Assembly (NCBI RefSeq): GCF_988243305.1
Contig: NZ_OZ547136.1
Direction: 5' to 3' (one strand)
Length of the DNA: 64,000 nt
Shown here: in pieces, positions 7,046 through 59,235 of the stretch
Position numbering within the stretch: position 1 is the stretch's first letter
How the letters are laid out: each line of letters opens with the position of its first letter
Notes under the pieces: model-generated
What the model saw: only the letters and a program-made list of their open reading frames with translations
Databases searched by the model: none
Told to the model about the DNA's origin: nothing
Position numbers and translations under genes: made by a program

Positions 7046-7110
7046 GGGTGCCTGAAGCTTTCCGGTTTCAGGTTTACTCTGAGGTCTGGAAAGATGAAGC
7101 CCCAGGACGA
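7046..7110 (-). ncRNA. sokE: Putative Sok antisense RNA, copy 1 (approximate coordinates)
   Basis: Inferred from hok/sok architecture: antisense to the mok translation-initiation region; candidate minus-strand -10 tagaaat at 7123..7117 and a weak -35. Confidence 0.3.
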
Positions 7111-7282
7111 TATTTCTATCAACCCTGGGGCTGCCACTCCAAACCCAAACAATTTGGATGGTAGTCCCTTCTTCGCATGGAGGCAATATAAACATGCTGA
7201 CGAAATATGCCCTTGCGGCAGTCATAGTGCTGTGTTTGACGGTGCTGGGATTTACGCTTCTGGTCGGAGACTCGCTGTGTGA
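7094..7282 (+). CDS. mokE: Mok (modulator of killing) overlapping reading frame, copy 1
   Basis: 62-aa ORF overlapping hok in another frame, as in hok/sok loci. Confidence 0.5.
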
Positions 7283-7346
7283 GTTTACGGTGAAGGAACG
7301 TAATATTGAGTTTAAGGCTGTTCTCGCTTACGAACCGAAGAAGTAG
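7194..7346 (+). CDS. hokE: Hok-family type I toxin (50 aa), copy 1
   Basis: [50 protein letters not shown]; single TM helix and conserved Hok C-terminus. Confidence 0.85.
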
Positions 7347-7418
7347 CCGTTGTGCGGGGAGTAATCCCCGCATATCCGGTTGTCAGGTCAGGGTGGTAAG
7401 GCACCTGCTTTACACTTT

Positions 7419-7446
7419 CGCCCGCGGTCAGCAATGGCTGCGGGCG
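7419..7446 (+). terminator. 3' stem-loop of hok mRNA copy 1 (terminator/fold-back region)
   Basis: cgcccgcggtcagcaatggctgcgggcg palindrome. Confidence 0.5.
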
Positions 7447-7549
7447 ATGTCGTTTTAAGGGCAATGATCAGTTTTGCCAACAGAAGTCCGAAACAGGATT
7501 CACTGTATAAATAAACAGCTATTTTGCTGAGGAAGGGTAAGATAACGGC

Positions 7550-7614
7550 GGGTGCCTGAAGCTTTCCGGTTTCAGGTTAACTCTGAGGTCTGGAAAGATG
7601 AAGCCCCAGGACGA
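7550..7614 (-). ncRNA. sokE: Putative Sok antisense RNA, copy 2 (approximate coordinates)
   Basis: Same position relative to mok/hok as copy 1. Confidence 0.3.
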
Positions 7615-7786
7615 TATTTCTATCAACCCTGGGGCTACCTACCCAAACCTGAACAATTTGGATGGTAGTCCCTTCTTCGCATGGAGGCAATATAAACATG
7701 CTGACGAAATATGCCCTTGTGGCAGTCATAGTGCTGTGTTTAACGGTGCTGGGATTTACGCTTCTGGTCGGAGACTCGCTGTGTGA
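7598..7786 (+). CDS. mokE: Mok overlapping reading frame, copy 2
   Basis: 62-aa ORF, 3 aa different from copy 1. Confidence 0.5.
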
Positions 7787-7850
7787 GTTTACGGTGAAGG
7801 AACGTAATATTGAGTTTAAGGCTGTTCTCGCTTACGAACCGAAGAAGTAG
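7698..7850 (+). CDS. hokE: Hok-family type I toxin (50 aa), copy 2
   Basis: [50 protein letters not shown]; one substitution (A8V) relative to copy 1. Confidence 0.85.
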
Positions 7851-7950
7851 CCGTTGTGCGGGGAGTAATCCCTTAAGTTAGCGCTTATGGGAGTAATCCC
7901 CGCATATCCGGTTGTCAGGTCAGGGTGGTAAGGCACCTGCTTTACACTTT

Positions 7951-7978
7951 CGCCCGCAGTCAGCATTGGCTGCGGGCG
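7951..7978 (+). terminator. 3' stem-loop of hok mRNA copy 2
   Basis: cgcccgcagtcagcattggctgcgggcg palindrome. Confidence 0.5.
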
Positions 7979-7999
7979 AATCGCTCCGGGTATTGTCAA

Positions 8000-8620
8000 T
8001 TAATCGTGTTGGCACAGCGTTATGACTATCTTTTCTTTTATCTGCCAGTGCACAGCAAACTGCTCATCCTCTAGTCGAATGATGATCTGCTGTTTATTCA
8101 AGCTAATTATCTGATAATCCAGAAATCCTGCATCAGTTTGTCTCTCCGATGCCTTAAATGCGCTCTCTTTGGCGGAAAATGCCAGTGTTAGCGCCAGAGA
8201 AAAGGTTAAACCGCATTCTGCGAGTCGCTCGTGTTCTGCTGGTGTAATAATGTTGTCTGTCAATTCTCTTGCGGTTTGTACAGAGAAAATCTCTTCGATA
8301 TCAATGCCAATCGGTTGACGAGATACCACGGCTAATGCCGTAGTCCCGCAGTGGCTAATACTGCCGTATACCTCCGCAGGCCACACAGGTTGGCGTAGCT
8401 CGCCGATAGCGGGCACATATTTATAGCCATATTCCCGCAAGGCATAAACAGCAGCGATTCGTCCAGCTAAATGCTCTGTTTTACGTTTACGTCCAGCGTG
8501 TTGCAGTTGTGCGTAGTGTGGCAGCCAGAGTAAATCCTGCTCGCGAAAACTCGCCGGATCGAACTTAACAAAATGCAGCGTATTTCCGGCAAAGGGGAGG
8601 GCGGTATGCGTAGTTTTCAT
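8000..8620 (-). CDS. entD: 4'-phosphopantetheinyl transferase for enterobactin synthase
   Basis: ORF 8000..8770; PPTase motifs PIGIDIEEI and FSAKESAFKA; start ambiguous (MKTTHT at 8620 or MVDMKTT at 8629). Confidence 0.85.
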   Translation of the reverse strand: MKTTHTALPFAGNTLHFVKFDPASFREQDLLWLPHYAQLQHAGRKRKTEHLAGRIAAVYALREYGYKYVPAIGELRQPVWPAEVYGSISHCGTTALAVVSRQPIGIDIEEIFSVQTARELTDNIITPAEHERLAECGLTFSLALTLAFSAKESAFKASERQTDAGFLDYQIISLNKQQIIIRLEDEQFAVHWQIKEKIVITLCQHD

Positions 8621-15700: not shown

Positions 15701-16579
15701 CTTGGCGGTCATTCGCTACTGGCAATGAAACTGGCTGCGCAGTTAAGTCGGCAGTTTACCCGCCAGGTGACGCCGGGGCAGGTGATGGTCGCGTCAACTG
15801 TCGCCAAACTGGCAACGATTATTGATGGTGAAGAAGACAGCACCCAGCGCATGGGATTCGAAACCATTCTGCCGTTGCGTGAAGGTAATGGCCCGACGCT
15901 GTTTTGTTTCCATCCGGCATCCGGTTTTGCCTGGCAGTTTAGCGTGCTTTCGCGTTATCTCGATCCACAATGGTCGATTATCGGCATTCAGTCGCCGCGC
16001 CCTCATGGCCCCATGCAGACGGCGGCAAACCTGGATGAAGTCTGCGAAGCGCATCTGGCAACGTTACTTGAACAACAACCGCACGGCCCTTATTACCTGC
16101 TGGGGTATTCGCTGGGCGGTACGCTGGCGCAGGGCATTGCGGCGCGACTGCGTGCCCGTGGCGAACAGGTGGCATTTCTTGGCTTGCTGGATACCTGGCC
16201 GCCAGAAACGCAAAACTGGCAGGAAAAAGAGGCTAATGGTCTGGACCCGGAAGTGCTGGCGGAGATTAACCGCGAGCGCGAGGCCTTCCTGGCGGCACAA
16301 CAGGGAAGTACTTCAACGGATTTGTTTACCACCATTGAAGGCAACTACGCTGATGCTGTGCGCCTGCTGACGACTGCTCATAGCGTACCGTTTGAAGGTA
16401 AAGCGACGCTGTTTGTTGCTGAACGCACACTTCAGGAAGGTATGAATCCCGAACGCGCCTGGTCGCCGTGGATTGCGGAGCTGGATATCTATCGTCAGGA
16501 TTGTGCGCATGTGGATATTATCTCTCCAGGGGCGTTTGAAAAAATTGGGCCGATTATTCGCGCTACGCTAAACAGGTAA
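12698..16579 (+). CDS. entF: Enterobactin NRPS, serine-activating (C-A-PCP-TE)
   Basis: 1293 aa; condensation motif YHHLLVDGFS, adenylation motif FTSGSTGRPKGV, PCP motif LGGHSL, thioesterase motif GYSLGG. Confidence 0.95.
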   Translation: MSQHLPLVAAQPGIWMAEKLSDLPSAWSVAHYVELTGEVDAPLLARAVVAGLAQADTLRMRFTEDNGEVWQWVDDALTFELPEIIDLRTNIDPHGTAQALMQADLQQNLRADSGKPLVFHQLIQVADNRWYWYQRYHHLLVDGFSFPAITRQIANIYCAWLRGEPTPASPFTPFADVVEEYQQYRESEAWQRDAAFWTEQRRQLPPPASLSPAPLPGRSVSADILRLKLEFTDGEFRQLAMQLSGVQRTDLALALAALWLGRLCNRMDYAAGFIFMRRLGSAALTATGPVLNVLPLGIHIAAQETLPELATRLAAQLKKMRRHQRYDAEQIVRDSGRAAGEEPLFGPVLNIKVFDYQLDIPGVQTQTHTLATGPVNDLELALFPDEHGDLSIEILANKQRYDEPTLIQHAERLKMLIAQFAADPALLCGDVDIMLPGEYAQLAQINATQVEIPETTLSALVAEQAAKTPHAPALADARYQFSYREMREQVVALANLLRERGVKPGDSVAVALPRSVFLTLALHAIVEAGAAWLPLDTGYPDDRLKMMLEDARPSLLITTDDQLPRFADVPDLTNLCYNAPLTPQGSAPLQLSQPHHTAYIIFTSGSTGRPKGVMVGQTAIVNRLLWMQNHYPLTGEDVVAQKTPCSFDVSVWEFFWPFIAGAKLVMAEPEAHRDPLAMQQFFAEYGVTTTHFVPSMLAAFVASLTPQTARQNCATLKQVFCSGEALPADLCREWQQLTSVPLHNLYGPTEAVVDVSWYPAFGEELAQVRGSSVPIGYPVWNTGLRILDAMMHPVPPGVAGDLYLTGIQLAQGYLGRPDLTASRFIADPFAPGERMYRTGDVARWLDNGAVEYLGRSDDQLKIRGQRIELGEIDRVMQALPDVEQAVTHACVINQAAATGGDARQLVGYLVSQSGLPLDTSALQAQLRETLPPHMVPVVLLQLPQLPLSANGKLDRKALPLPELKAQAPGRAPKAGSETIIAAAFSSLLGCDVQDADADFFALGGHSLLAMKLAAQLSRQFTRQVTPGQVMVASTVAKLATIIDGEEDSTQRMGFETILPLREGNGPTLFCFHPASGFAWQFSVLSRYLDPQWSIIGIQSPRPHGPMQTAANLDEVCEAHLATLLEQQPHGPYYLLGYSLGGTLAQGIAARLRARGEQVAFLGLLDTWPPETQNWQEKEANGLDPEVLAEINREREAFLAAQQGSTSTDLFTTIEGNYADAVRLLTTAHSVPFEGKATLFVAERTLQEGMNPERAWSPWIAELDIYRQDCAHVDIISPGAFEKIGPIIRATLNR

Positions 16580-16794
16580 ATTAATATTATCCATAAACCC
16601 ATAATTACAGGAAATGATTATGGGTTTATCATTTATTTGATTTATAAGTTTGGTGGATATTTCTCTTAAATAGAGTGAATGTTGCATTCAGTGGAAGGAA
16701 TTTACAAACTTCAGCTTCGGATAATTCTCACCAACTGGTAAAGTGAGCGCCGTGGAGATTTCCCCCTATTGGACTCATTTTCAGGTTATACCCC

Positions 16795-17928
16795 ATGTCA
16801 TCACTGAATATTAAACAGGGAAGTGACGCTCATTTTCCCGAGTATCCTCTGGCGTCGCCCAGTAATAATGAAATTGATTTACTTAATCTAATCGCAGTTT
16901 TATGGCGGGCCAAAAAAACGGTCATGGCGGTCATTTTTGCATTTGCCTGCGCAGGTTTACTGATCTCTTTCATCCTGCCGCAAAAATGGACCAGCGCGGC
17001 GGTTGTCACGCCTCCAGAACCTGTTCAGTGGCAAGAGCTGGAGAAAACATTCACTAAGCTTCGAGTGCTGGATCTGGATATCAAAATTGATCGTACAGAA
17101 GCATTTAACCTGTTTATCAAGAAGTTTCAGTCGGTTAGCTTGCTGGAAGAGTACCTGCGTTCATCACCTTATGTGATGGACCAATTAAAAGAGGCGAAAA
17201 TCGACGAACTGGATTTGCATCGCGCAATTGTCGCATTGAGCGAAAAAATGAAAGCGGTTGATGACAATGCCAGTAAGAAAAAAGATGAACCGTCACTTTA
17301 TACCTCCTGGACGCTAAGTTTTACCGCGCCAACCAATGAAGAGGCGCAAACCGTTTTGAGCGGGTATATCGATTATATCTCTGCTCTGGTGGTGAAAGAG
17401 TCGATAGAAAATGAGCGCAATAGACTGGAGCTTAAAACCCAGTTTGAAAAAGAAAAACTGGCTCAGGACCGCATTAAAATGAAAAATCAACTTGATGCAA
17501 ACATTCAGCGCCTCAATTATTCACTCGACATTGCCAACGCGGCAGGAATTAAAAAGCCCGTTTACAGTAATGGTCAGGCCGTTAAAGATGACCCCGATTT
17601 CTCTATTTCTCTCGGCGCAGACGGTATTGAACGCAAACTGGAAATTGAAAAAGCGGTTACTGACGTTGCGGAACTGAACGGTGAATTACGTAATCGTCAG
17701 TATCTTGTCGAGCAATTAACAAAAGCAAATATCAACGATGTGAATTTTACGCCGTTTAAATATCAGTTAAGCCCGTCATTGCCAGTGAAAAAAGACGGTC
17801 CGGGTAAGGCGATTATTGTGATCCTTTCTGCGATGGTCGGCGGGATGGTGGCTTGTGGTGGCGTGCTGTTGCGCTATGCGATGGCATCCAGAAAACAGGA
17901 TGCCGTGATGGAAGAGCACTTAGTTTAA
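16795..17928 (+). CDS. fepE: Polysaccharide co-polymerase (Wzz-like) FepE
   Basis: 377 aa; N- and C-terminal TM segments flanking a coiled-coil periplasmic domain. Confidence 0.9.
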   Translation: MSSLNIKQGSDAHFPEYPLASPSNNEIDLLNLIAVLWRAKKTVMAVIFAFACAGLLISFILPQKWTSAAVVTPPEPVQWQELEKTFTKLRVLDLDIKIDRTEAFNLFIKKFQSVSLLEEYLRSSPYVMDQLKEAKIDELDLHRAIVALSEKMKAVDDNASKKKDEPSLYTSWTLSFTAPTNEEAQTVLSGYIDYISALVVKESIENERNRLELKTQFEKEKLAQDRIKMKNQLDANIQRLNYSLDIANAAGIKKPVYSNGQAVKDDPDFSISLGADGIERKLEIEKAVTDVAELNGELRNRQYLVEQLTKANINDVNFTPFKYQLSPSLPVKKDGPGKAIIVILSAMVGGMVACGGVLLRYAMASRKQDAVMEEHLV

Positions 17929-33032: not shown

Positions 33033-33662
33033 TTATTTGACAGTCCAGGCACGGGAATATTGACGGTCGGCAAACAACTCTTGCAGGCCATTAATTTGTT
33101 TCAGGCGCAGCACCTCGTCGCTGTCCATTCCCAGCTCTTTGCCAATTTTATTATCGTCCCATCCCAACTGGCTGAGTTCACGGACGATTTCTGACATGGC
33201 AGTGATTTGGTGACGTCCACGGGCGCGATTATGACGAATAGTCGCGGCGATGCGTTGATTACGCGTACCTTCCAGACAGGTCACCGGCAAATAACCTTTT
33301 AAGCGTAATTTTAACGATGATGAGCCTTTACCAATTTCATGGCGGTGAAAACCATCCACGATTTCCAGGGCATTTTTATCCGTATGCGTGACCACAATGG
33401 GTTGGGTAAAACCATCTATTTCAATGGATTTTTTCAGCAGTTTTTTTTCGGGTGGTGCCACGTTGTTTGGGTTGTAATCATTAGGCATAAGTTGGCTGTT
33501 TTTAACCCACAGAACGCAATCCACTGGCTCTTCTCGAAAGGGGCTAACCTGATGGATCGCCATGCGGATTTCATTAATCGCTTTGATGCGATCGTCTTCC
33601 GGCAAGCTGGCGAGAAATTGGGTTAAATCCTGCGTTAATCGTTGTTGCATAGTATCCCCCAT
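33033..33662 (-). CDS. ybdM: ParB/sulfiredoxin-like domain protein
   Basis: 209 aa; DGxHR-type motif in IVDGFHRHEIGK; 28-bp overlap with ybdN. Confidence 0.8.
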   Translation of the reverse strand: MGDTMQQRLTQDLTQFLASLPEDDRIKAINEIRMAIHQVSPFREEPVDCVLWVKNSQLMPNDYNPNNVAPPEKKLLKKSIEIDGFTQPIVVTHTDKNALEIVDGFHRHEIGKGSSSLKLRLKGYLPVTCLEGTRNQRIAATIRHNRARGRHQITAMSEIVRELSQLGWDDNKIGKELGMDSDEVLRLKQINGLQELFADRQYSRAWTVK

Positions 33663-34855
33663 TCCTGACGTTTTCCTTTTATTCGTTCGTTATAACGCTG
33701 ATAGTTCTTCGCTTTGGTCGGGCTAAATGATAATGCCCGACACCAGTAATCGTTATTGAGTAAAACTTTGCATATTCGCCGCCAGGAGGGGATATCTTTC
33801 GCGCCAATGTCCCCTTGCTGGGTTTGTGGAACCTCGATGCCTTTTTTCTGATACCAGTGCAAATAAATGGCGATTTTATTGCGATAATGCTCAGCTGTTT
33901 TCTCCGGCATGCTGTTGAGTAGCAATAATGCATACTCCTGCCAGTCTAAATGTTCGGGCTTGAGGATTTTCCGATGACCATAAAAATGGTTGTCATGTCC
34001 GGCGTAAATGCCGCCACTTTTTACCCCGCTGACTCGTGCGCACATAGCAGCCCAGCGATCCGGTTCGATAACGTGATAGAGCCATAATCCTTGCCGTTGT
34101 TCCGGACCAAAAGGTTCGCAAATTCGCATATGACGTAGAGGAACGCCTGCCTGATACATTATATTATACAGTGGGTTACAGAGGCGTTGATGGCTAGCAT
34201 ACCAGGTCCAGATATCAGCGACTTTCCAGTCGTAGATGGGGTAAATGTACCAGCTATGACCGCCTGGTGCGGCAGTGGTCCAGGGCTTATCATCGGCAAA
34301 ACGTTGTTTATTTAAACTGGCGATGGCGACAAAACGGTTGTAGGACTCATCCGCACGGATGCCGATCATCATCGCCGCCGGACGTTTTTGTGAAAACCAT
34401 TCGGCAAACTCACGCACAAATTGTTCGAAGGTCATGCCTGGCTGGTAAAAGGAGAAAAAGTCAGGATCGGTTATCGCATCTTGCGGAGGCTGACGTACCC
34501 ATTCGACATCAGGTTCCCAGCACTGCCATTCGGGTTGGTATTGTGATAGGGAATTTTGCGTTGTAAGCGGGAGCGCAACCCAGTAAAACTCTTCGATGAC
34601 ATCGGTGTACAACTCGCGCAGGGACTGAACATAGTTAATGGTGCAAGAGAACTGAGCTTCCCAGTCGATAAATAAAACACAAATTTTTTTGCCCATTTGT
34701 CGGGCAAGTTCGGCGGTCAGATGCAGCATTAATCCGGAATCTTTACCACCCGAAAAAGAAACGCAGACGCGGGGTAGGGTGTTAAGTGTCCAGGTAATAC
34801 GTTCTTTTGCAGCTTCCAGAATATTCAGTGGAAGCGGGATTTTATAAATAGACAT
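33635..34855 (-). CDS. ybdN: PAPS-reductase-like PP-loop ATP pyrophosphatase family protein
   Basis: 406 aa; PP-loop motif SFSGGKDSGLM near the N-terminus. Confidence 0.8.
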   Translation of the reverse strand: MSIYKIPLPLNILEAAKERITWTLNTLPRVCVSFSGGKDSGLMLHLTAELARQMGKKICVLFIDWEAQFSCTINYVQSLRELYTDVIEEFYWVALPLTTQNSLSQYQPEWQCWEPDVEWVRQPPQDAITDPDFFSFYQPGMTFEQFVREFAEWFSQKRPAAMMIGIRADESYNRFVAIASLNKQRFADDKPWTTAAPGGHSWYIYPIYDWKVADIWTWYASHQRLCNPLYNIMYQAGVPLRHMRICEPFGPEQRQGLWLYHVIEPDRWAAMCARVSGVKSGGIYAGHDNHFYGHRKILKPEHLDWQEYALLLLNSMPEKTAEHYRNKIAIYLHWYQKKGIEVPQTQQGDIGAKDIPSWRRICKVLLNNDYWCRALSFSPTKAKNYQRYNERIKGKRQEWGILCNND

Positions 34856-35001
34856 CTGAAAACGCTCTCTGAACGTTACGGGGTGACTCGTGAGATGAAT
34901 CCGCTAATTATAGGGTAAACGAAGCAAGATAGAGCACATTATTTTATATTCACACAATGAATCAATTGATGCGTAATATAACATTTATCAGTGGTAATAA
35001 A

Positions 35002-35904
35002 TCAGAAGCTATCATTTAAACGATCTATGAATCGTGAGAAGACAAGGTTGTTCAACGAAGCCTTGTTATAGGAAATATAAAGTTTAACCGCAGGAAGTGG
35101 TTGTTCCAGTTTTATCTCTTGTAACTTCAAAAAATCACGATGTAAATCGTACAGTTCGGTGGGCACAATGCCCAATAAGTCAGTAACAGAAATACTATTA
35201 ATTATCGTCAACAAAGAAGAACTGCGAAATGAAACTTTACGGTTCATAAAACGTTCATCTATGTCCATTTGAATTTCGTCAATCCCTGCTGATTTAGATA
35301 TCAACAAGGTGAATTCTTCGGCGATAATTTGTTCATAGTTACTGGTATCGGTAATACGAGGATGTTTGTTGCTACATATAAGAGAATTGCGAATAGTATG
35401 TAACGGCATGCAGATGACAGAGCGGCTAATTACTGGTTGTAGTGTAATTGCCAGGTCAGTTTTGCGTTGAACCAACAGTTCTTCGGCATTTTCAGCTGAA
35501 AGCAGTATGTCATGGCATTCTATATCGATTGAAGTATCTTGTCTAAGACAGCGGATTAGCATGTTGTTATTAGTACAAGAAATAAGCTGAGGACCGTAGA
35601 TAATAAAATTTTTCTTTAGCTCAGACTTATTAACAATATTGATCGTTTGTTCAAGGCCTCTGAGATTTTTCTCAAGATGATGATGCAGATTTAACCCTGT
35701 CGTAGTCGGCGCGATACCTTTCCCTGAGCGAATGAATAACGGGTCATTAAATTGCGCACGTAAACGTTGTAACGACTGACTAACAGCAGAGGGCGTTATA
35801 TATAATGATTCTGCTGCTTTGCTAATGCTGAGGTGTTGATAAATGCACTCAAATATGACCAGTAAATTCAGATCAAATTTTTTTAGGTCATAAAGATTCG
35901 CCAT
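35002..35904 (-). CDS. ybdO: LysR-family transcriptional regulator
   Basis: ORF 35002..35940; start MANLYDLKKFDLNLLVIFE (300 aa); N-terminal HTH; AT-rich gene. Confidence 0.8.
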   Translation of the reverse strand: MANLYDLKKFDLNLLVIFECIYQHLSISKAAESLYITPSAVSQSLQRLRAQFNDPLFIRSGKGIAPTTTGLNLHHHLEKNLRGLEQTINIVNKSELKKNFIIYGPQLISCTNNNMLIRCLRQDTSIDIECHDILLSAENAEELLVQRKTDLAITLQPVISRSVICMPLHTIRNSLICSNKHPRITDTSNYEQIIAEEFTLLISKSAGIDEIQMDIDERFMNRKVSFRSSSLLTIINSISVTDLLGIVPTELYDLHRDFLKLQEIKLEQPLPAVKLYISYNKASLNNLVFSRFIDRLNDSF

Positions 35905-36111
35905 AACATACTCCGTTATATTATCTCTTCTATAAATCATTCATTTGTTCAATAATGTTGCTGTTGTATTTATTTGTATTATGTTTTTTTGCTTAACTCA
36001 GAATTAAGTTTTTCTAAAATAGCACAGCCACTTAGGGCAGAGCGAGCAATTCATGCTTTTTTAGGATGGTTGAAAAACAGGGATATATTTCAACCATCCA
36101 TGAATTATCTT

Positions 36112-36858
36112 TTATTTATTCCCCATAATGATATTAAGCGTTTTCTGATCGGGCAACCCCACGGCCTGTTGCAGTGTATTTTCCTTACTCATGTAGTAGA
36201 TAGCTGGTGTGACATTTGCCCCCAGATCGTCCATGAGTTTCTCGTTGTCGCTTAACACTTTCATTTGCTCTGTACTTACGTTTGCAGGCACGTTTAGCTT
36301 AAGCTTGCCACCAGAGGCTTCATATTCTTGCCAGGTTTTTGCGGGATCTTTGGCGGCAAGAATTGCCGCTGCTGTCGCCGGGCTTTCTGGCTTGATAACC
36401 CCAACCAACAATGTTCTTAATTGCACTTTGCCAGAATCTACCCACGGGCGCGCCTGCTGCCAGAACTGTTTACAATATGGGCAGAACGGATCGGCGAAGA
36501 CGTAAACAATGACCGGCGCGTCTTTTTTACCGTCGAGGAGCCAGTGGGATTGTTCCATCCGTTGCCACATTTCGCGTCCGGCTGGTGCGTAAATTTCTTT
36601 TTCGATAAGTGTGTTACTCAGGTTTTCACCTTTCTCGTTGTACATGTAACCAGAGATAGCGTGCTTACCATCTGGAGTCAGGTAGATGGTGACGCCCATA
36701 TCCTGATACTTTCCGAGATAACCTTTCATTCCTCCGGGGGCATCGAACGTTTTGATGATTGTAATGCCCTGTTTTTCAATCGCTTTTACTGGAGCGGGAA
36801 GTTCCTCTGCGAAGGCGATTGCAGGAAGCAGAGCCAGTAAAAGTATCTTTTTTAACAT
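36112..36858 (-). CDS. dsbG: Periplasmic thiol:disulfide isomerase
   Basis: ORF 36112..36918; start [17 protein letters not shown] (signal peptide); thioredoxin-fold active site CPYC. Confidence 0.9.
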
Positions 36859-37139
36859 TAATTTGTCCTTTTCAGTCAGTGCAAAAGTCGGGTAAAAGGC
36901 ATAACCTATCACTGTCATAGGTAAGAGCTTAGATCAGGTGATTGCCCTTTGTTTATGAGGGTGTTGTAATCCATGTCGTTGTTGCATTTGTAAGGGCAAC
37001 ACCTCAGCCTGCAGGCAGGCGCTGAAGATACCAAAGGGTAGTTCAGATTACACGGTCACCTGGAAAGGGGGCCATTTTACTTTTTATCGCCGCTGGCGGT
37101 GCAAAGTTCACAAAGTTGTCTTACGAAGGTTGTAAGGTA

Positions 37140-37195
37140 AAACTTATCGATTTGATAATGGAAACGCATTAGCCGAATCGGCAAAAATTGGTTAC
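37140..37195. promoter_or_regulatory. Probable OxyR-responsive ahpC promoter region (approximate)
   Basis: Position upstream of ahpC plus the known OxyR control of ahpCF; the motif was not resolved base by base. Confidence 0.3.
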
Positions 37196-37229
37196 CTTAC
37201 ATCTCATCGAAAACACGGAGGAAGTATAG

Positions 37230-37793
37230 ATGTCCTTGATTAACACCAAAATTAAACCTTTTAAAAACCAGGCATTCAAAAACGGCGAATTCATCGAAAT
37301 CACCGAAAAAGATACCGAAGGCCGCTGGAGCGTCTTCTTCTTCTACCCGGCTGACTTTACTTTCGTATGCCCGACCGAACTGGGTGACGTTGCTGACCAC
37401 TACGAAGAACTGCAGAAACTGGGCGTAGACGTATACGCAGTATCTACCGATACTCACTTCACCCACAAAGCATGGCACAGCAGCTCTGAAACCATCGCTA
37501 AAATCAAATATGCGATGATCGGCGACCCGACTGGCGCCCTGACCCGTAACTTCGACAACATGCGTGAAGATGAAGGTCTGGCTGACCGTGCGACCTTCGT
37601 TGTTGACCCGCAGGGTATCATCCAGGCAATCGAAGTTACCGCTGAAGGCATTGGCCGTGACGCGTCTGACCTGCTGCGTAAAATCAAAGCAGCACAGTAC
37701 GTAGCTTCTCACCCAGGTGAAGTTTGCCCGGCTAAATGGAAAGAAGGTGAAGCAACTCTGGCTCCGTCTCTGGACCTGGTTGGTAAAATCTAA
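37230..37793 (+). CDS. ahpC: Alkyl hydroperoxide reductase peroxiredoxin subunit C
   Basis: 187 aa; peroxidatic Cys in FTFVCPTE, resolving Cys in EVCPAKW. Confidence 0.95.
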
Positions 37794-37814
37794 ATTTCCT
37801 TCGTCTTTCACGCC

Positions 37815-37910
37815 ATAGCGGCGTTGGCGTCGCCCGCTCACCCCGGTCACTTACTTGTGTAAGCTCCCGGGGATTCACAGGCTAGCCGCCTTGCTCTGGC
37901 GTGAAATACT
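37815..37910. repeat. ERIC/IRU-like repetitive palindromic element in the ahpC-ahpF spacer
   Basis: cgctcaccccggtcacttacttgtgtaagctcccggggattcac resembles the ERIC core as I recall it (AAGTAAGTGACTGGGGTGAGCG ... GTAAGCTCCTGGGGATTCAC). Confidence 0.55.
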
Positions 37911-38037
37911 TCGGAAATTCACCTAATTCTTCGGGTGCTGCGGCACCCGATTTTCTTCCCCGCACCATGATGCAAGCTGCATCCAGGTAGCCGCAGAGGC
38001 CGCTTGCATGATGATGTTTAAAGCCCAGGAGATAAAC

Positions 38038-40152: not shown

Positions 40153-40275
40153 AAGCATTCTCTCCTTGTTTTTGCATGTATACATAACAGCACATTATTG
40201 GTTATGAATCTATGATTTGCGAGGCTGATTTGATCTGAATTTGCTATTGAGCTGGAAAATAAATAAAACCAGGCG

Positions 40276-40365
40276 CTACCAGCGTTGTTCAAGGTATAGC
40301 ACTGCAGCAACAATAATTGCTGCTATGAATATATAAAATGCAGTGATACCGAGAGCTTCGCTCAT
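40276..40365 (-). CDS. Hypothetical 29-aa hydrophobic small ORF (unverified)
   Basis: Translation MSEALGITAFYIFIAAIIVAAVLYLEQRW; one predicted TM helix; weak RBS; below the 60-aa cutoff of the supplied ORF track. Confidence 0.2.
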   Translation of the reverse strand: MSEALGITAFYIFIAAIIVAAVLYLEQRW

Positions 40366-40507
40366 ATGAGGTTCCGCAGATGAATAACCAGTTCAGATTA
40401 GAATGCTGCGCTTAAGAGCAAAATGATAAATCTGGTTGATATTTGAGCGGAAAGAGGATGCGAGTGCATCCTCTGGGCAAAGCGAGTTATCGCTTGTGCA
40501 GATGGGA

Positions 40508-47748: not shown

Positions 47749-48807
47749 TCATGCGGGGGTCTTTTGACGAGCTGCCGCGTCCTGGCGGGAGTGCTCAAGC
47801 AGGTTCTGCAAATAATGCAGCGTGACTGCAGGGACCAGCGGCGCGATAGCCGTGAGATCGTTTTTCGCCAGCAGTTGACGTACCCGGGAAGCGGATATCG
47901 GCATCTCCTGGTAACGCAGCCGCTCAATTTCAACCAGTTCGATGGGCGGTGCGGAGATAGTCGGCGTTTCCAGCCAGTAGCGCATATCCTGGTTGTACTG
48001 GGCGGTAACGCGACAAAAGGGTTCAGTACCGACAAAGCGGTGAGTTACACCCAGCGCGGGAGCGAGGTACTGACGGAAAATCTTCAGATCAATTTCGGTG
48101 TAACAATGGTTAATGACGCTCTGTTCTTTAATGAAGTAGCAAGGGAACGTAGCGCGGGAGATGATGTATTCGGAGCCGCGATGCACAGTCAGGCGTGGAA
48201 TATCGGCGGTGCCTTTTAACACCAGATCCAGCCGGTCTTCATAGGGAAAGCGTGAAGAATCTTCTTTAACTAAAAACAGATGCAACCAGTCGCACTGTGC
48301 TGCAGCCTGTTGAATCAGATAACGGTGACCATTCGTAAAGGGATTGGCGTTCATCACAATGCAGCCAATCTTGTTCCCTGGATGACGAAATTTTTTCAGC
48401 GATTCGGCATAGCGTTTCAGTCGCGTGGCGCTGTTTTCCATCAGCACCATCACGCCGGGTACACTGGTCAGCGTGGAAAAACCGCACTGGCGGAACAGCG
48501 CCTCGTATTCGGTTTTGGTATAAATAAACAGATGCGTGCTGTGCCACTCATAGGCGAGGTTAATTAGCTCGGTGGCTAATGTCAGCGCCAGTCCTTCACC
48601 GCGAACGGATTCACTGATAGCAACGCATTTAATAATATTTCCGGCAATTCCACCGCACGCGATAAGCTTTTCATCGCGGGTTACGGTAATAAATACTTCG
48701 ACTGTGGTGTCAACGCTCAAATCATTTTCATGCAGGAATTGGGCGATTTCCGCCATTTTTTTATTTTCTGAACGTTTTACACGGGTGAAAATATCATTGC
48801 CGAACAT
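47749..48807 (-). CDS. citC: [Citrate (pro-3S)-lyase] ligase
   Basis: ORF 47749..48894; start MFGNDIFTRVKRSE (352 aa). Confidence 0.9.
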   Translation of the reverse strand: MFGNDIFTRVKRSENKKMAEIAQFLHENDLSVDTTVEVFITVTRDEKLIACGGIAGNIIKCVAISESVRGEGLALTLATELINLAYEWHSTHLFIYTKTEYEALFRQCGFSTLTSVPGVMVLMENSATRLKRYAESLKKFRHPGNKIGCIVMNANPFTNGHRYLIQQAAAQCDWLHLFLVKEDSSRFPYEDRLDLVLKGTADIPRLTVHRGSEYIISRATFPCYFIKEQSVINHCYTEIDLKIFRQYLAPALGVTHRFVGTEPFCRVTAQYNQDMRYWLETPTISAPPIELVEIERLRYQEMPISASRVRQLLAKNDLTAIAPLVPAVTLHYLQNLLEHSRQDAAARQKTPA

Positions 48808-49186
48808 AATAAATAGTATCCTGAAGGTGCATGTTGTTATCGATTTGCAACGAATGTTGTTCGATGTTGCAAACTGATAACCTTTTATTTTCACTTGGGA
48901 GAAAGGGGGGCGATCGAGGTATATCTTTTTCTCCTTTCGCTATACATCCTAAGGAGTATTGCAGCGTGAAATTTTGATTTATTTCACATAGAGTTAGTGG
49001 TTTTTTATTTATTTAATGGTTTTAAGTTTTTTAATTAATGTAATTACGAAATGACCCGCAGGTTTAAGTGATTTAATTGATTTAATGAATAAAATTTGCC
49101 ACGATTATATTTAATATCTATGTATTTTGATTCAACATTTTAATTACATCCGTCAAAGAGGCTCGGGACAACCCGCAAGGAAAACA
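48808..49186. promoter_or_regulatory. AT-rich divergent citC / citAB control region
   Basis: Long AT-rich spacer with reiterated ttaat/atttaa blocks between divergent operons; DpiA/CRP control is from established knowledge and sites were not mapped. Confidence 0.4.
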
Positions 49187-50845
49187 ATGTTGCAGCTTAA
49201 CGAGAATAAACAGTTTGCATTTTTCCAAAGACTGGCATTTCCGCTGCGTATCTTTTTGCTGATTCTGGTGTTCTCAATATTTGTCATTGCAGCCCTGGCG
49301 CAATATTTTACGGCCAGTTTTGAGGACTATTTAACGCTTCATGTGCGCGACATGGCAATGAATCAGGCAAAAATTATTGCTTCTAATGACAGTATCATCA
49401 GCGCAGTGAAAACGCGTGACTACAAGAGGCTGGCGACCATCGCTAACAAATTACAAAGAGATACTGATTTCGATTATGTGGTGATTGGCGATCGGCACTC
49501 GATTCGTCTTTACCATCCTAATCCGGAGAAAATTGGTTATCCTATGCAGTTCACCAAACCGGGCGCGCTGGAGAATGGGGAGAGCTACTTCATCACCGGG
49601 AAAGGGTCAATTGGCATGGCGATGCGTGCCAAAACGCCAATCTTTGATGACGATGGAAAAGTCATCGGCGTGGTGTCGATTGGCTACCTGGTGAGTAAAA
49701 TCGATAGCTGGCGGGCTGAGTTTTTATTACCGATGGCTGGCGTGTTTGTCGTGCTGTTAGGGATTCTGATGTTGCTATCGTGGTTCCTGGCCGCGCATAT
49801 CCGTCGGCAGATGATGGGCATGGAGCCAAAGCAAATCGCACGCGTGGTCCGTCAGCAAGAGGCGCTGTTTAGTTCGGTTTATGAAGGGCTCATTGCGGTG
49901 GATCCGCATGGTTACATTACCGCCATCAATCGTAACGCAAGAAAGATGCTGGGTCTGAGTTCCCCCGGACGGCAATGGTTGGGTAAACCCATTGCTGAAG
50001 TGGTCAGGCCCGCCGATTTCTTTACCGAACAGATTGATGAAAAACGTCAGGATGTGGTGGCGAACTTTAACGGTCTGAGCGTTATTGCCAACCGGGAAGC
50101 TATTCGTTCAGGTGATGATTTGCTGGGGGCCATTATCAGCTTTCGTAGTAAAGACGAAATATCCACCCTCAATGCGCAACTGACGCAAATTAAACAATAC
50201 GTCGAGAGCCTGCGCACATTGCGACACGAGCATCTCAATTGGATGTCGACGCTCAATGGTCTGTTGCAGATGAAAGAGTATGATCGCGTGTTGGCGATGG
50301 TGCAGGGGGAGTCTCAGGCCCAGCAACAGCTTATTGATAGCCTGCGCGAGGCGTTTGCCGATCGCCAGGTGGCGGGGCTGCTTTTTGGTAAAGTGCAGCG
50401 CGCCCGCGAACTGGGGCTAAAAATGGTCATCGTCCCCGGAAGTCAGCTTTCGCAACTGCCGCCAGGACTGGACAGCACCGAGTTTGCAGCCATTGTTGGC
50501 AATTTACTTGATAACGCCTTCGAAGCCAGCCTGCGTAGCGATGAAGGAAACAAGATCGTTGAATTATTCCTCAGCGATGAAGGCGATGATGTGGTGATTG
50601 AAGTCGCCGATCAGGGCTGCGGCGTTCCAGAGTCTCTACGAGACAAAATATTTGAGCAGGGTGTCAGTACGCGTGCTGACGAGCCCGGCGAACATGGCAT
50701 TGGGTTGTACTTGATTGCCAGCTACGTAACGCGCTGCGGTGGTGTTATCACTCTCGAAGATAATGATCCCTGCGGTACCTTATTTTCAATCTATATTCCG
50801 AAAGTGAAACCTAATGACAGCTCCATTAACCCTATTGATCGTTGA
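49187..50845 (+). CDS. dpiB: Citrate-sensing histidine kinase
   Basis: ORF 49127..50845; start MLQLNENKQF (552 aa); two TM helices flanking a periplasmic domain; phospho-His region RTLRHEHLNWMSTL; ATPase G-box DQGCGV. Confidence 0.9.
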   Translation: MLQLNENKQFAFFQRLAFPLRIFLLILVFSIFVIAALAQYFTASFEDYLTLHVRDMAMNQAKIIASNDSIISAVKTRDYKRLATIANKLQRDTDFDYVVIGDRHSIRLYHPNPEKIGYPMQFTKPGALENGESYFITGKGSIGMAMRAKTPIFDDDGKVIGVVSIGYLVSKIDSWRAEFLLPMAGVFVVLLGILMLLSWFLAAHIRRQMMGMEPKQIARVVRQQEALFSSVYEGLIAVDPHGYITAINRNARKMLGLSSPGRQWLGKPIAEVVRPADFFTEQIDEKRQDVVANFNGLSVIANREAIRSGDDLLGAIISFRSKDEISTLNAQLTQIKQYVESLRTLRHEHLNWMSTLNGLLQMKEYDRVLAMVQGESQAQQQLIDSLREAFADRQVAGLLFGKVQRARELGLKMVIVPGSQLSQLPPGLDSTEFAAIVGNLLDNAFEASLRSDEGNKIVELFLSDEGDDVVIEVADQGCGVPESLRDKIFEQGVSTRADEPGEHGIGLYLIASYVTRCGGVITLEDNDPCGTLFSIYIPKVKPNDSSINPIDR

Positions 50846-52920: not shown

Positions 52921-53508
52921 AATTTTCCCTGTCTCCAGGCCCCAAAGTAAATAATAAAAAATTCCTAAAGCTTAAGGAAAAAATATGCCCAATAAATTGG
53001 CGATGAATGCTGATTAAAATCAAGAAAAACTGCCATTAAGACATTGAATTTGCTGTTTTTATACATAGATAACAAAACGCATATTTAGCGGTTGGCAATT
53101 ATCACATAATAATGTGTGTAAATTGATGGTGGATTGATGCAAATTTGTTAATTGCAATGGTGTTAGTTGCGGCTGTGCGCTCAAAAAATAATCTAACATG
53201 AGCATGGGTTGACGATATATAATATATTTTTCGTTAAGGAATTTTTTGTATCTTATTAAAAAATAAAGTAATTTTTTCTTGATTGCATTTTGTTATCAAA
53301 AAAGACTTGGTTTTTCTTTTTTGACTATTCCCATCGCAGAAAACGACGCATCATCTTTAATCGATGCGCGGAAATATTTAACTTAAACAAGCGGAAATAA
53401 ATAGAGCAGCTATTCAGATTATTCTTTATGTTGGGGCTATTAAGGTTATGTTAATTGTAGCTTTGCTATGCTAGTAGTAGATTTTTGATAAATGTTTTAT
53501 GGTCACAA

Positions 53509-54069
53509 ATGAACGTGAGTAAATATGTCGCTATCTTTTCCTTTGTTTTTATTCAGTTAATCAGCGTTGGTAAAGTTTTTGCTAACGCAGATGAGTGGAT
53601 GACAACGTTTGGAGAAAATATTGCACAAACCTGGCAACAGCCTGAACATTATGATTTATATATTCCTGCCATCACCTGGCATGCACGTTTCGCTTACGAC
53701 AAAGAAAAAACCGATCGCTATAACGAGCGACCGTGGGGTGGCGGTTTTGGTCAGTCGCGATGGGATGAAAAAGGAAACTGGCATGGCCTGTATGCCATGG
53801 CATTTAAGGACTCGTGGAACAAATGGGAACCGATTGCCGGATACGGATGGGAAAGTACCTGGCGACCGCTGGCAGATGAAAATTTTCATTTAGGACTGGG
53901 ATTCACCGCTGGCGTAACGGCACGCGATAACTGGAATTACATCCCTCTCCCGGTTCTACTGCCATTGGCCTCTGTGGGTTATGGTCCAGTGACTTTTCAG
54001 ATGACCTACATTCCGGGTACCTATAACAATGGCAATGTGTACTTTGCCTGGATGCGCTTTCAGTTTTGA
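53509..54069 (+). CDS. pagP: Lipid A palmitoyltransferase (outer-membrane beta-barrel)
   Basis: ORF 53485..54069; start [25 protein letters not shown] (signal peptide), 186 aa; C-terminal ...WMRFQF. Confidence 0.9.
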
Positions 54070-57380: not shown

Positions 57381-58334
57381 TCAAAATGCATTACGGATAA
57401 CATCTATTACCCCGTGCAGGATGGGATCACGCAGGCTGAATTTGTTGTAGTGGATAGAGAAATCTATTTGCTCCTCATTTAAGGACGGAAAAGGCAGTTT
57501 TTCCAGCGGCCAACAACGGCTAAACAGGTTATAAAAACGGCTGGGAATAATCGCTAACATGTCACTGTTGGCAACCAGTGCAGCGATTGTCAAAATGTTG
57601 TAGCTGGTGAAACTGATTTGCCGGTCCGGAAACATCTCTTGAACTCTCTGCCGCAGACCGCTGAAATTTTGCCCTTCCGGTAACAGGAGTATATGCGCAG
57701 CGTTGTCGATAGTCTCCCTGTCATCTTCTAAAGAGAGTAGTGGATTTCCCTCACGGCAAATTAACACCATATTGTCGGTGAACAGAACATGATGTTGCAC
57801 CGTACGATTGGTGCAAAACATGTTATCGATGATGAGATCGGTTTGAAACTGACTGAGTTGGTTTTCCGCGTCGCTGATGGGGGGGTTGCGCAGTAAAAGC
57901 TGCGGATAGTGAGATTTAATCGCCCGATAGATGACAGGAAGGACCAGGGCTCCGACCGAGGGGGTGGTCGCAATGGTTATCGTTCGTTGCTTATCATAGC
58001 TTCCTTCGATATCCAGCGCGCCAAGAATGGACTCAAGGCCCTGACTGATATACTCATGTAGATGCATCGCAAATGCGGTAGGAGTGACACCCTGGCCTTT
58101 GCGAATAAACAATGGGTCAGGGAATATAACGCGCAGTTTCTGAATAGACTGACTGATTGCCGAGGGTGTCAGATTAAGCACTTTCGCTGCATTAACGATC
58201 CCTTTATGTACATATACAGCTTCAAAAATAGTCAGAAGGTTAAGATCAATATTTCGTAAGGTTGTAAATATTTGTGGTTTATCTTCTGACGACTTTCTGC
58301 TTAAACAGGTTTCAATTTGATTATTACTATCCAC
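57381..58334 (-). CDS. ybeF: LysR-family transcriptional regulator
   Basis: 317 aa; N-terminal HTH; AT-rich gene. Confidence 0.8.
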   Translation of the reverse strand: MDSNNQIETCLSRKSSEDKPQIFTTLRNIDLNLLTIFEAVYVHKGIVNAAKVLNLTPSAISQSIQKLRVIFPDPLFIRKGQGVTPTAFAMHLHEYISQGLESILGALDIEGSYDKQRTITIATTPSVGALVLPVIYRAIKSHYPQLLLRNPPISDAENQLSQFQTDLIIDNMFCTNRTVQHHVLFTDNMVLICREGNPLLSLEDDRETIDNAAHILLLPEGQNFSGLRQRVQEMFPDRQISFTSYNILTIAALVANSDMLAIIPSRFYNLFSRCWPLEKLPFPSLNEEQIDFSIHYNKFSLRDPILHGVIDVIRNAF

Positions 58335-58593
58335 GCACTTACTCCAATTTTATTCATGGAAAAATAATATTAAAAAAAATTACAATAATCTTATGTCTAA
58401 TTGGAACGGAACGCTTTTGCTCACCATAATCAACTATTTCAATAAGTTAATCAATGGGGTGAGTTACGGAGCAAGGCGTAGCATCGCATTTCTGCAAGTG
58501 ATAAAGAAAATATACAAACGCGAAGGAGATGTAAAGCATTAGCAGGTATTATGAGTAATGACCCAGTGTAAATTGGGCCATTGATGTATGCAA

Positions 58594-59235
58594 TTAAGCG
58601 GTAATATATTCGAAGTCAGGATTGTTTAGTAGCGCTAAAATATTTTCCAGTAAACGCGGTGCAATATTATTAGTCGTCGCTTCGGGTTTCCATTGTGATA
58701 TTTTAGCCATTTCCATTCCGGCATACCCACAAGGATTAATACGTAAAAATGGTGAAAGATCCATATTGACGTTTAATGCCAGACCGTGGAATGAACAACC
58801 GCGTCGAATACGTAAACCCAGTGAGCAAATTTTCTTTTCCCCGACATAGACACCAGGCGCGTCAGCCCGAGGATGCGCTTCTATACCCAGTTCAGCCAGG
58901 GTATTCACCACTGTTTGCTCAAGCAAGGTCACCAGTTCACGCACACCGAGTTTACGGCGTTTCAGGTTAAGCAACACATACATCACCTGTTGCCCCGGCC
59001 CGTGATAAGTCACCTGCCCACCGCGATCGCTCTGAATCACCGGAATATCACCCGGCATTAAAATGTGCTCCGCTTTTCCTGCCTGCCCTTGGGTAAATAC
59101 CGGATAGTGCTCGACCAGCCAGATTTCATCAAGGGTACTTTCATCGCGGGTATCGGTGAATTCATGCATAGCCTGGGAGATTGGCTCGTAAGGCTGAAGA
59201 CCGAGCTGGCGGACAAGAATTTTATCCTGATACAA
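58594..59235 (-). CDS. lipB: Octanoyltransferase
   Basis: 213 aa; active-site Cys region KICSLGLRI. Confidence 0.9.

Follow-up and report, generated by a model that had tools for sequence, protein, structure and literature searches.

The LysR-type regulator gene ybdO (citR) of Escherichia coli lies in DNA visibly more AT-rich than its neighbours, which raises the question of whether such a composition marks horizontally acquired DNA, DNA silenced by H-NS, or both. We approached it in a window of 64,000 nucleotides (the whole stretch of DNA analysed), a piece of E. coli chromosome running from cusA to mrdB with a gene order collinear with that of strain 042. Composition, synteny and the pattern of divergence are our own results; H-NS binding and derepression are taken from papers, and this functional evidence (H-NS occupancy and expression) comes mostly from K-12, SE11, SE15 and one K1 strain rather than from the strain studied here.

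The window has a GC content of 51.6%. A maximal-segment scan with a GC threshold of 43% returned, as its four strongest AT-rich segments (30.7–35.4% GC), exactly the sites that an earlier note had singled out by eye, namely ybdO, the dcuC–pagP and citC–citA spacers and the ybeF region (Table 1), and the positions it gave for ybdO–dsbG, dcuC–pagP and the ybeF region are exact. The largest score among 200 mononucleotide shuffles was 20.5, but since this null is blind to the difference between coding and non-coding DNA it overstates significance. The lowest 1-kb GC window of the sequence (0.361) falls inside the ybdO island and the lowest 300-bp one (27.7%) in the dcuC–pagP island. Two lesser segments were absent from the earlier note, one of them reaching into fepE (GC 44.7%). 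Among the 50 genes with 100 codons or more (mean GC 52.5%, sd 4.7), ybdO has the lowest GC (37.4%, z=-3.2; GC3 36.0%, z=-3.0; GC1/GC2 44.3/32.0%), and its distinctness from the other genes is thereby borne out in numbers. It is set apart much less by codon usage, its CAI of 0.21 being the second lowest of the 50 with a z of only -1.1; CAI was computed with Sharp and Li weights for E. coli, and its absolute values are approximate while ranks are robust to small errors. Among the candidate genes only ybdO is AT-rich over its full length. The description of ybeF as an AT-rich regulator holds for its promoter and 5′ end and not for the gene as a whole, which is only mildly low (z=-1.6; CAI 0.24, fifth lowest of the 50), the island consisting of the ybeF 5′ end, the promoter spacer and the lipB 3′ end. 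With z about -1.1 each, ybdM and ybdN are therefore not AT-rich islands.

Table 1. Features of the ybdO locus and AT-rich segments of the window
Feature	Coordinates	Strand	Length	Description
ybdO (citR)	35002-35904	-		LysR-type transcriptional regulator, 300 aa; stop codon included
ybdO–dsbG spacer	35905-36111	-		ybdO promoter inside; 30.0% GC
ybdO–ybdN spacer	34856-35001	-		upstream of ybdNM; 35.6% GC; within AT-rich and hyper-divergent blocks
ybdN and ybdM operon	33036-34855	-		47.4% and 47.0% GC
dcuC–pagP spacer	52921-53508		588 bp	30.6% GC
citC–citA(dpiB) spacer	48808-49186		379 bp	divergent promoters; 32.2% GC
ybeF	57381-58334	-		LysR-type regulator; 45.1% GC
ybeF–lipB spacer			259 bp	34.4% GC
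ybdO -10 element, candidate TATTTT	36016-36021	-		weak, by eye; right distance from published start site
URE, upstream H-NS-dependent element	approx. 36080-36154	-		-250 to -176 from ybdO ATG (PMC4720273); placed by offset
DRE, downstream H-NS-dependent element	approx. 35741-35878	-		+27 to +164, within ybdO coding region (PMC4720273); placed by offset
ybdO (main) island	34839-36149	.	1311 bp	ybdN 5′ tip, ybdN–ybdO spacer, whole ybdO, ybdO–dsbG spacer, dsbG 3′ tip; 35.4% GC; score 99.7 (top)
dcuC–pagP island	52944-53664	.	721 bp	most of spacer and first 156 bp of pagP; 30.7% GC; score 89.0 (second)
citC–citA(dpiB) island	48687-49398	.	712 bp	citC 5′ 121 bp, 379-bp spacer, citA 5′ 212 bp; 35.4% GC; score 54.2 (third)
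ybeF-promoter island	58191-58777	.	587 bp	ybeF 5′ 144 bp, 259-bp spacer, lipB 3′ 181 bp; 34.1% GC; score 52.4 (fourth)
pagP–cspE spacer, lesser segment	54058-54304	.		30.8% GC; score 30.2
entF–fepE spacer and fepE 5′ end, lesser segment	16569-16903	.		35.5% GC; score 25.0

For ybdO, binding by H-NS has been reported in K-12, SE11 and SE15 by ChAP-seq, together with derepression of lacZ fusions in hns mutants (PMC4720273); the ybdO promoter is shifted by H-NS in EMSA, ybdO goes up 2.2–2.4-fold in Δhns, and repression is relieved at acidic pH (PMC9141747). The ybdO–dsbG spacer is scored TRUE for H-NS binding and E. coli strains differ in it by a mean distance of 0.134 (S3 Table, PMC4720273), and dsbG is flagged as H-NS-bound in S2 Table of the same paper. 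The transcription start has been published at 106–107 bp upstream of the ATG (PMC4720273), an offset that would place it at about 36010-36011 in the window; a consensus sigma-70 scan of 34700-36300 gave 6 matches against 5.6 expected, none of them at the published ybdO promoter. Two H-NS-dependent elements are known, the upstream one (URE) having been mapped via lacZ fusions in K-12, SE11 and SE15 (PMC4720273); as the spacer is not equally long in all alleles, its coordinates in the window may be off by a few bases. The high-affinity H-NS motif TCGATAAATT, allowing up to 2 mismatches, matched the whole window 58 times against 58.65 expected and the ybdO island five times, as AT content alone would give, and the motif scan is therefore without discriminating power.

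At ybdO, H-NS has been shown to need both the URE and the downstream element (DRE) (PMC4720273) and may bridge or spread between them, keeping the promoter at a basal level; acidic pH and early stationary phase relax the repression. Bridging or spreading is suggested by analogy with bgl and proU, a parallel drawn by the authors who mapped the elements: as in those systems, repression of ybdO depends on a pair of AT-rich elements, the first upstream of the promoter and the second in the coding region, although ybdO also has H-NS-independent negative elements, whose position depends on the allele (PMC4720273). The AT-rich block of the window covers both ybdO elements. Unlike bgl and proU, which are operons for catabolism or osmoprotection, ybdO codes for a regulator. 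Another LysR-type regulator gene in AT-rich DNA, leuO, is kept near-silent by H-NS in standard laboratory growth and comes on under stress or in stationary phase. The H-NS-silenced, AT-rich, LysR-family gene ybdO resembles leuO in these respects, but whereas LeuO antagonizes H-NS globally, the reported regulon of CitR/YbdO is small (ybdNM, itself, the cit genes and, in K1 strains, kpsM) and we found nothing suggesting that it counteracts H-NS, the sense in which leuO is mentioned elsewhere (PMC6106083).

The other three segments are long AT-rich promoter spacers spilling into coding ends (dcuC–pagP, citC–citA and lipB–ybeF), and the ybdO/citR segment takes in a whole gene with both its spacers. 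Expression of pagP is derepressed 18-fold in Δhns, and hns transposon insertions were recovered in a screen (PMC4147861); H-NS repression there is opposed by SlyA and RcsB–GadE, the published counter-silencers of pagP (PMC6106083). Genomic SELEX placed H-NS sites in the dcuC–pagP and ybeF–lipB spacers (PMC3946193), and S2 Table of PMC4720273 flags citA and lipB as H-NS-bound, citCDEFXG as an H-NS-bound transcription unit, and entF as bound at its 3′ end only. All four segments coincide with reported H-NS sites. Silencing is supported for ybdO and pagP, both derepressed in hns mutants in the papers cited; for ybeF and citC/citA(dpiB), where the literature gave binding reports only and no hns-mutant expression data were found, repression of the ybeF and cit/dpi promoters by H-NS is inferred.

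One may object that the dcuC–pagP, citC–citA and lipB–ybeF segments are nothing more than the usual AT-rich DNA of promoters and regulatory regions, on which H-NS binding is incidental and has little regulatory effect. Their spacers lie only 1.2–1.5 sd under the intergenic mean of the window (41.3% GC, sd 7.7), at the low end of the normal intergenic range; the equally AT-rich pagP–cspE spacer (30.5%) is not H-NS-bound in two data sets (FALSE in S3 Table, PMC4720273; HNS mark absent in PMC3946193); the three islands are not more divergent between strains, being 97.1–98.1% identical to strain JNE23 against 96.9% overall; and, for ybeF and cit/dpi, the literature is limited as just described. 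Nevertheless they are the second to fourth strongest segments, extend over 587–721 bp and reach into coding ends, the pagP effect is large and backed by direct genetics, and SELEX in vitro and ChAP-seq in vivo, two methods independent of each other, agree on the ybeF–lipB site, so that we regard an incidental role as unlikely. A recent foreign origin, with the AT-richness of ybdO and by extension of the other islands reflecting a donor genome, has in its favour that the GC of ybdO is atypical at each of the three codon positions and its CAI low, that it has been classed from published predictions among horizontally transferred genes (PMC4720273), and that 65 of 5426 E. coli genomes have no megablast match to the island, ybdO being replaced by IS1 in one of those examined; the remaining 5361 carry it. 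Yet ybdO occupies the same context, ahpC–(dsbG)–ybdO–ybdN–ybdM–ybdL, in 74 loci from species of Enterobacteriaceae, including Citrobacter, Salmonella arizonae and diarizonae, Enterobacter, Klebsiella, Raoultella, Kluyvera and Leclercia, and its GC follows that of the host genome (36–39% in Escherichia, Citrobacter and Salmonella, 43–50% in Enterobacter and Klebsiella) while always staying under that of its neighbours, by 9.6–19.4 points for ybdL in 61 of 61 comparisons and by 4.7–13.1 points for ybdN in 60 of 60. No tRNA was found in the 64-kb window, no mobility genes in the collinear 042 annotation, and no repeats flanking the ybdO island other than short low-complexity ones without meaning; the remaining three islands are spacers that hold promoters and separate core genes. 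Across Enterobacteriaceae the locus has long kept ybdO AT-rich, as a conserved property and not as the trace of a recent import into E. coli; the suggestion of horizontal acquisition in the earlier note, taken as a recent event, is for ybdO already largely refuted and in our estimation highly improbable. There are likenesses to xenogeneic silencing (Salmonella pathogenicity islands, LEE, and pagC/ugtL with SlyA/PhoP) in the AT-rich DNA, the H-NS occupancy, the derepression in hns mutants and the dedicated counter-silencers, for E. coli pagP SlyA and RcsB–GadE. The islands here differ in measuring 0.6–1.3 kb, in lacking mobility genes and in their setting among core genes whose synteny is conserved; they consist of resident regulatory DNA rich in AT and are not recent imports. 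We consider it very probable that each of the four segments belongs to the resident chromosome and that H-NS binds there and dampens transcription.

Both YbdO/CitR and YbeF are LysR-type transcriptional regulators with an N-terminal HTH_1 and a C-terminal substrate-binding domain. YbdO, which is 99.7% identical to WP_001305555.1 (annotated CitR), matches Pfam HTH_1 (E=7.9e-19, 67.8 bits) and LysR_substrate (E=1.8e-10, 41 bits), and YbeF matches the same two models with 54.1 and 59.8 bits, all above cut-offs. A ChIP-exo peak of CitR lies upstream of citR, and in ΔcitR the log2 fold changes are +5.5 for ybdN, +2.5 for ybdM and +3.3 for citF, at base means of 20–36 (ybdN 36, ybdM 20); YbeF has three ChIP-exo sites with no defined adjacent target (PMC9068703). 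YbdO/CitR also activates K1 capsule genes, and YbeF has been linked to flagellar regulation. YbdO/CitR binds DNA upstream of citR and is reported to repress both its own expression and the neighbouring ybdNM operon and to affect citCDEF, although the rise of ybdNM in ΔcitR may owe something to polarity of the deletion cassette that lies immediately upstream. YbdN is PAPS-reductase-like (Pfam PAPS_reduct and DUF3440) and YbdM ParB_N-like or IbrB-like (ParB_N, 24.6 bits, under the cut-off of 26.3); a literature search on ybdM/ybdN and H-NS gave nothing beyond the CitR paper (PMC9068703). The picture of ybdM–ybdN as a silenced AT-rich pair is not supported, their low expression being attributed to repression by CitR and not to H-NS. 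With YbdO renamed CitR and described as repressing ybdNM, the functions of the regulators are less obscure than had been stated.

The AT-richness of ybdO, its binding and repression by H-NS and the H-NS control of pagP were already published in 2014–2016. Since H-NS sites at AT-rich stretches are thus on record, the finding is ordinary, except for the deeply different versions of ybdO within the species. Measured against the 5361 E. coli genomes, the island shows discrete classes of identity (≥99% in 363, 95–99% in 234, 90–95% in 1189 and 80–90% in 3560, with sampled values of 80.1–80.9% in the last), the island being about 80% identical to some two-thirds of E. coli genomes, against about 95% in the flanks; in a ybdL control of equal length identity never drops below 90%. 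The trough of identity, bounded at about 34.7–35.9 kb between flanks at 0.94–0.99, coincides with the AT-rich island, and identity of the ybdO–ybdN spacer to the JNE23 allele is as low as 0.71–0.73. For this window we rejected a general link between AT-richness or H-NS binding and divergence between strains (GC versus identity in non-overlapping windows, Spearman -0.11, p=0.11). Compared with JNE23 or O157, ybdO has a dS of 2.0–2.1, a dN of 0.066 and a dN/dS of 0.03, whereas neighbouring genes have a dS of 0.06–0.30 with similar dN/dS. The SE15/042 and K-12/O157 types of the island are separated by about 20% nucleotide difference, with synonymous saturation and strong purifying selection. The allele of the window is of the SE15/042 type, its 5′ coding sequence matching the SE15-specific primer site at all but 2 of 24 positions and departing from the SE11 one at many; this type is carried by roughly one-third of complete genomes and the K-12/O157 type by roughly two-thirds. 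Within haplotype classes, four-fold-site divergence of ybdO and of its flanks is 0.36 versus 0.33–0.41 (window–EcSCPM), 0.15 versus 0.14–0.26 (JNE23–EspMOD1) and 0.17 versus 0.26–0.30 (E1V33–E. whittamii). In simple Jukes–Cantor neighbour-joining trees of nine Escherichia sequences, the window, 042, S3 and EcSCPM form a clade for ybdO at 100% bootstrap, in conflict with the flanks, where all E. coli minus EcSCPM form a clade, also at 100%.

The gene was the test case of Higashi et al. (2016) for H-NS-bound, fast-diverging genes, chosen for its top-50 substitution rate, and its divergence was ascribed to diversification under H-NS repression (PMC4720273). For the same gene, our comparison suggests instead that the divergence is located on the branches that separate a few haplotypes and is at odds with the tree of the flanks. 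The discrete identity classes with their ybdL control, the bounded extent of the trough, the excess of dS at similar dN/dS, the within-class divergence similar to that of the flanks, the conflicting bootstraps, and the other H-NS-bound islands showing no excess divergence in a window where GC does not predict identity would all fit a few old haplotypes, maintained as a long-lived polymorphism or transferred between Escherichia lineages through homologous recombination, rather than uniformly faster, H-NS-facilitated substitution. Against this, the trees are simple and dS is saturated; H-NS-bound orthologues show no global excess of tree incompatibility, ybdO not having been tested individually (PMC4720273); and YbdO has evolved faster than its neighbours in the long term, with 52% amino acid identity to Salmonella arizonae against 81–82% for YbdN and YbdL. 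Since the corresponding dN is 0.45 against 0.11–0.13, some rate acceleration is real. The identity of about 80%, the dS of about 2 and the conflicting tree suggest old haplotypes or recombination, a reading that competes with the published account of divergence and not with H-NS silencing itself, and to which we give the same weight as to its negation. More tentatively, and with a little less than even confidence, the 1.2-kb ybdO/citR island (about 34.7–35.9 kb) may be a recombination-bounded cassette with at least two very old haplotypes, shared across Escherichia lineages against the pattern of the flanks.

What the earlier note found adds, as written, nothing to the literature, and its use lies in calibration: the four segments picked by eye are exactly the strongest in 64 kb, each matching a reported H-NS site. 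For annotation two corrections follow, namely that AT-richness here does not equal recent horizontal transfer and that the silence of ybdNM is put down to CitR rather than H-NS. The single aspect that might reward further study is the haplotype structure of ybdO, whose alleles within E. coli are as distant as typical genes between E. coli and Citrobacter or Salmonella. If the old-haplotype reading is true, the textbook example of H-NS-facilitated diversification would become one of long-lived or introgressed regulatory polymorphism, in which H-NS silencing would merely make either allele cheap to carry. With both alleles under purifying selection and H-NS-bound, ybdO offers a tractable case for the exchange and maintenance of silenced regulatory genes.

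Megablast matched positions 34000-38000 to 5422 of the 5426 complete E. coli genomes, the best match being strain 042 (99.2%), with which the entire window is collinear: cusA/pheP, the ent/fep cluster, ybdL-ybdM-ybdN-ybdO-dsbG-ahpCF, the cit operon, dpiBA, dcuC, pagP, cspE and lipA-ybeF-lipB, up to mrdB. The AT-rich islands described in the earlier note were recovered, since its four sites are exactly the top four AT-rich segments in a maximal-segment scan of the 64 kb (shuffled-sequence maximum, 20.5), and its coordinates for ybdO and for the ybdO-dsbG and dcuC-pagP spacers proved exact; weaker segments lie at pagP-cspE and entF-fepE. Among the genes called AT-rich, ybdO, annotated in the current RefSeq as 'citR, DNA-binding transcriptional repressor CitR', is the sole clear outlier of the window in per-gene composition statistics, whereas ybeF is only mildly low (45.1% GC, z = -1.6), the 'ybeF island' being composed of the ybeF 5′ end, the promoter spacer and the lipB 3′ end. 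The GC content of ybdO is 37.4%, versus a mean of 52.5% (sd 4.7) for the 50 window genes of at least 100 codons (z = -3.2); its GC3 is 36.0% (z = -3.0), GC1 and GC2 are likewise the lowest in the window, and its CAI, whose absolute value calls for caution, is the second lowest there (0.21). ybdM and ybdN have 47% GC. The named spacers (30-34% GC; intergenic mean 41%, sd 7.7) are, judged by GC alone, at the low end of normal intergenic DNA. An additional AT-rich gene, absent from the earlier note, is fepE, encoding a Wzz-type O-antigen chain-length regulator (44.7% GC; entF-fepE spacer, 34.9%), whose region is moderately divergent (identity 0.87-0.88 at 16801-17100).

Features of the window, with scores of the AT-rich segments
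Feature	Coordinates	Strand	Score
hokE/sokE toxin-antitoxin locus	6978-7979		
fepE with entF spacer	16569-17925		
ybdM-ybdN	33036-34855		
AT-rich segment, ybdO island	34839-36149		99.7
ybdO (stop codon included)	35002-35904	-	
ybdO-dsbG spacer	35905-36111		
AT-rich stretch, uspG-yldA	40171-40446		
AT-rich segment, citC-citA	48687-49398		54.2
dcuC-pagP spacer	52921-53508		
AT-rich segment, dcuC-pagP	52944-53664		89.0
AT-rich segment, ybeF-lipB	58191-58777		52.4

Published data show that the earlier reading was right on H-NS, and the AT-rich/H-NS finding as such is already known. ybdO is the model H-NS-bound gene of Higashi et al. 2016 (PMC4720273): the H-NS ChAP-seq signal over the gene and its upstream region has a conserved profile in K-12, SE11 and SE15, an hns mutant shows higher promoter-fusion activity, and repression requires an upstream (-250 to -176) and a downstream (+27 to +164) element. 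Transcription starts 106-107 bp 5′ of the ATG; little expression is seen during exponential growth, the maximum coming in early stationary phase. The same study flags as H-NS-bound the ybdO-dsbG spacer, with a mean distance among strains (0.134) that is very high for its table, as well as dsbG, citA, lipB, ybdG, the entF 3′ end adjoining fepE and the citCDEFXG transcription unit; it lists the pagP-cspE spacer as unbound. H-NS binds the ybdO promoter in EMSA, and ybdO, whose product activates K1 capsule genes, rises 2.2-2.4-fold in Δhns, with relief at pH 5.5-6.5 (Fan et al. 2022, PMC9141747). H-NS SELEX sites mark the dcuC-pagP and ybeF-lipB spacers and are absent from dsbG-ahpC, lipA-ybeF and pagP-cspE (Shimada et al. 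2014, PMC3946193). A pagP-derepression screen yielded hns insertions, pagP rising 18-fold in Δhns with SlyA as counter-silencer (Chalabaev et al. 2014, PMC4147861), to which Szczesny et al. 2018 added RcsB-GadE.

The suggestion that H-NS also silences ybdM-ybdN found no support, as low ybdNM expression has been attributed instead to YbdO, renamed CitR by Rodionova et al. 2022 (PMC9068703). In that work, ChIP-exo placed a YbdO peak 5′ of its own gene, and ybdN and ybdM were the most strongly derepressed genes in the citR deletion (log2 +5.5 and +2.5; citF +3.3), at base means of just 20-36 reads. YbdN carries a PAPS-reductase-like domain and DUF3440, and YbdM a weak ParB_N-like (IbrB-like) domain.

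Horizontal acquisition, also proposed, is not borne out as a recent event: the ahpC-(dsbG)-ybdO-ybdN-ybdM-ybdL context is kept in 74 of 78 loci with YbdO relatives (one genome per species scanned), spanning Escherichia, Citrobacter, Salmonella arizonae and diarizonae, Enterobacter, Klebsiella, Raoultella, Kluyvera, Leclercia, Trabulsiella and others; absolute GC of ybdO in these syntenic loci follows the host genome; and neither a tRNA within the 64-kb window nor meaningful repeats flanking the island were seen. In every comparison ybdO lies below ybdL (by 9.6-19.4 GC points, n = 61) and ybdN (4.7-13.1 points, n = 60). The AT-richness of this locus is long-standing and has been maintained, and any transfer, if it ever occurred, would be older than the radiation of the Enterobacteriaceae. 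ybdO is counted among 'HTGs' via published predictions, but the poor conservation within the family of H-NS-bound HTGs in general (PMC4720273) does not hold for it. Two contigs (2.2 and 2.5 kb), deposited under a Lachnospiraceae and an uncultured Bacteroides metagenome-assembled genome, encode YbdO at 88% identity, the second also YbdN at 99%; both have the appearance of E. coli sequence wrongly binned into unrelated genomes.

Within E. coli, the 1311-bp ybdO island falls into discrete identity classes across 5361 genomes (at least 99% in 363, 95-99% in 234, 90-95% in 1189, and 80-90% in 3560, with sampled values of 80.1-80.9%), whereas a ybdL control of equal length reaches at least 95% identity in 4269 genomes and 90-95% in 1150, with none below. 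A multiple alignment puts identity to the majority allele, carried by strains JNE23 and O157, at 0.71-0.79 across about 34.7-35.9 kb and at 0.94-0.99 in the flanks. Against either strain, ybdO has a dS of 2.0-2.1, a dN of 0.066 and a dN/dS of 0.03, and neighbour genes a dS of 0.06-0.30 with similar dN/dS, so that strong purifying selection acts on both alleles. By the strain-specific primer sites of PMC4720273, the window allele is of the SE15 type. In STEC17-183 (NZ_CP075652.1, 4288-4985), IS1 has taken the place of the entire ybdO, next to dsbG on one side and a slightly truncated ybdN on the other; this probably accounts for part of the 65 E. coli genomes lacking a match to the island. STEC17-183 and JNE23 carry ybdR (a 1.24-kb zinc-dependent alcohol dehydrogenase gene) directly 3′ of uspG, in JNE23 between uspG and yldA; it is missing from the window and 042, the window having instead 276 bp of AT-rich sequence with no alignment to JNE23. 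Relative to JNE23, the second-highest divergence (identity 0.83-0.90 in 300-bp windows) is seen at hokE/sokE with the entD end (about 7600-8300); hokE/sokE is tandemly duplicated, and two hokE are annotated also in 042 and JNE23.

At the family level YbdO does evolve faster than its neighbours, with 52% amino-acid identity to Salmonella arizonae versus 81-82%. Identity to JNE23 is 97.1-98.1% for the remaining three AT-rich islands, in line with the rest of the window (96.9%), and GC showed no relation to identity with JNE23 across the window. In a small sample analysed with simple methods, ybdO forms clade A (the window, 042, S3 and the divergent 'E. coli' lineage SCPM-O-B-8794), clade B (JNE23, O157 and Escherichia sp. 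MOD1-EC7003) and clade C (E. whittamii and Escherichia sp. E1V33). Four-fold-site divergence of ybdO resembles that of its flanks inside clades (for instance, window versus SCPM-O-B-8794, 0.36 versus 0.33-0.41) and is saturated between them. The neighbour-joining trees conflict outright, SCPM-O-B-8794 joining clade A for ybdO and all E. coli grouping without it for the flanks, each at 100% bootstrap. The ybdM, ybdN and dsbG coding sequences of this strain (NZ_JAATUR010000029.1) are about 87-90% identical to those of the compared E. coli, and it is probably a separate Escherichia lineage, at a distance like that of named sister species. Because the classes are discrete, the trough bounded, the divergence patterned by clade, the trees in conflict and the other islands undiverged, old haplotypes or recombinational exchange would fit ybdO better than a uniformly faster clock driven by H-NS, with the faster family-level evolution of YbdO as a reservation; this haplotype structure is the only lead here with some novelty.
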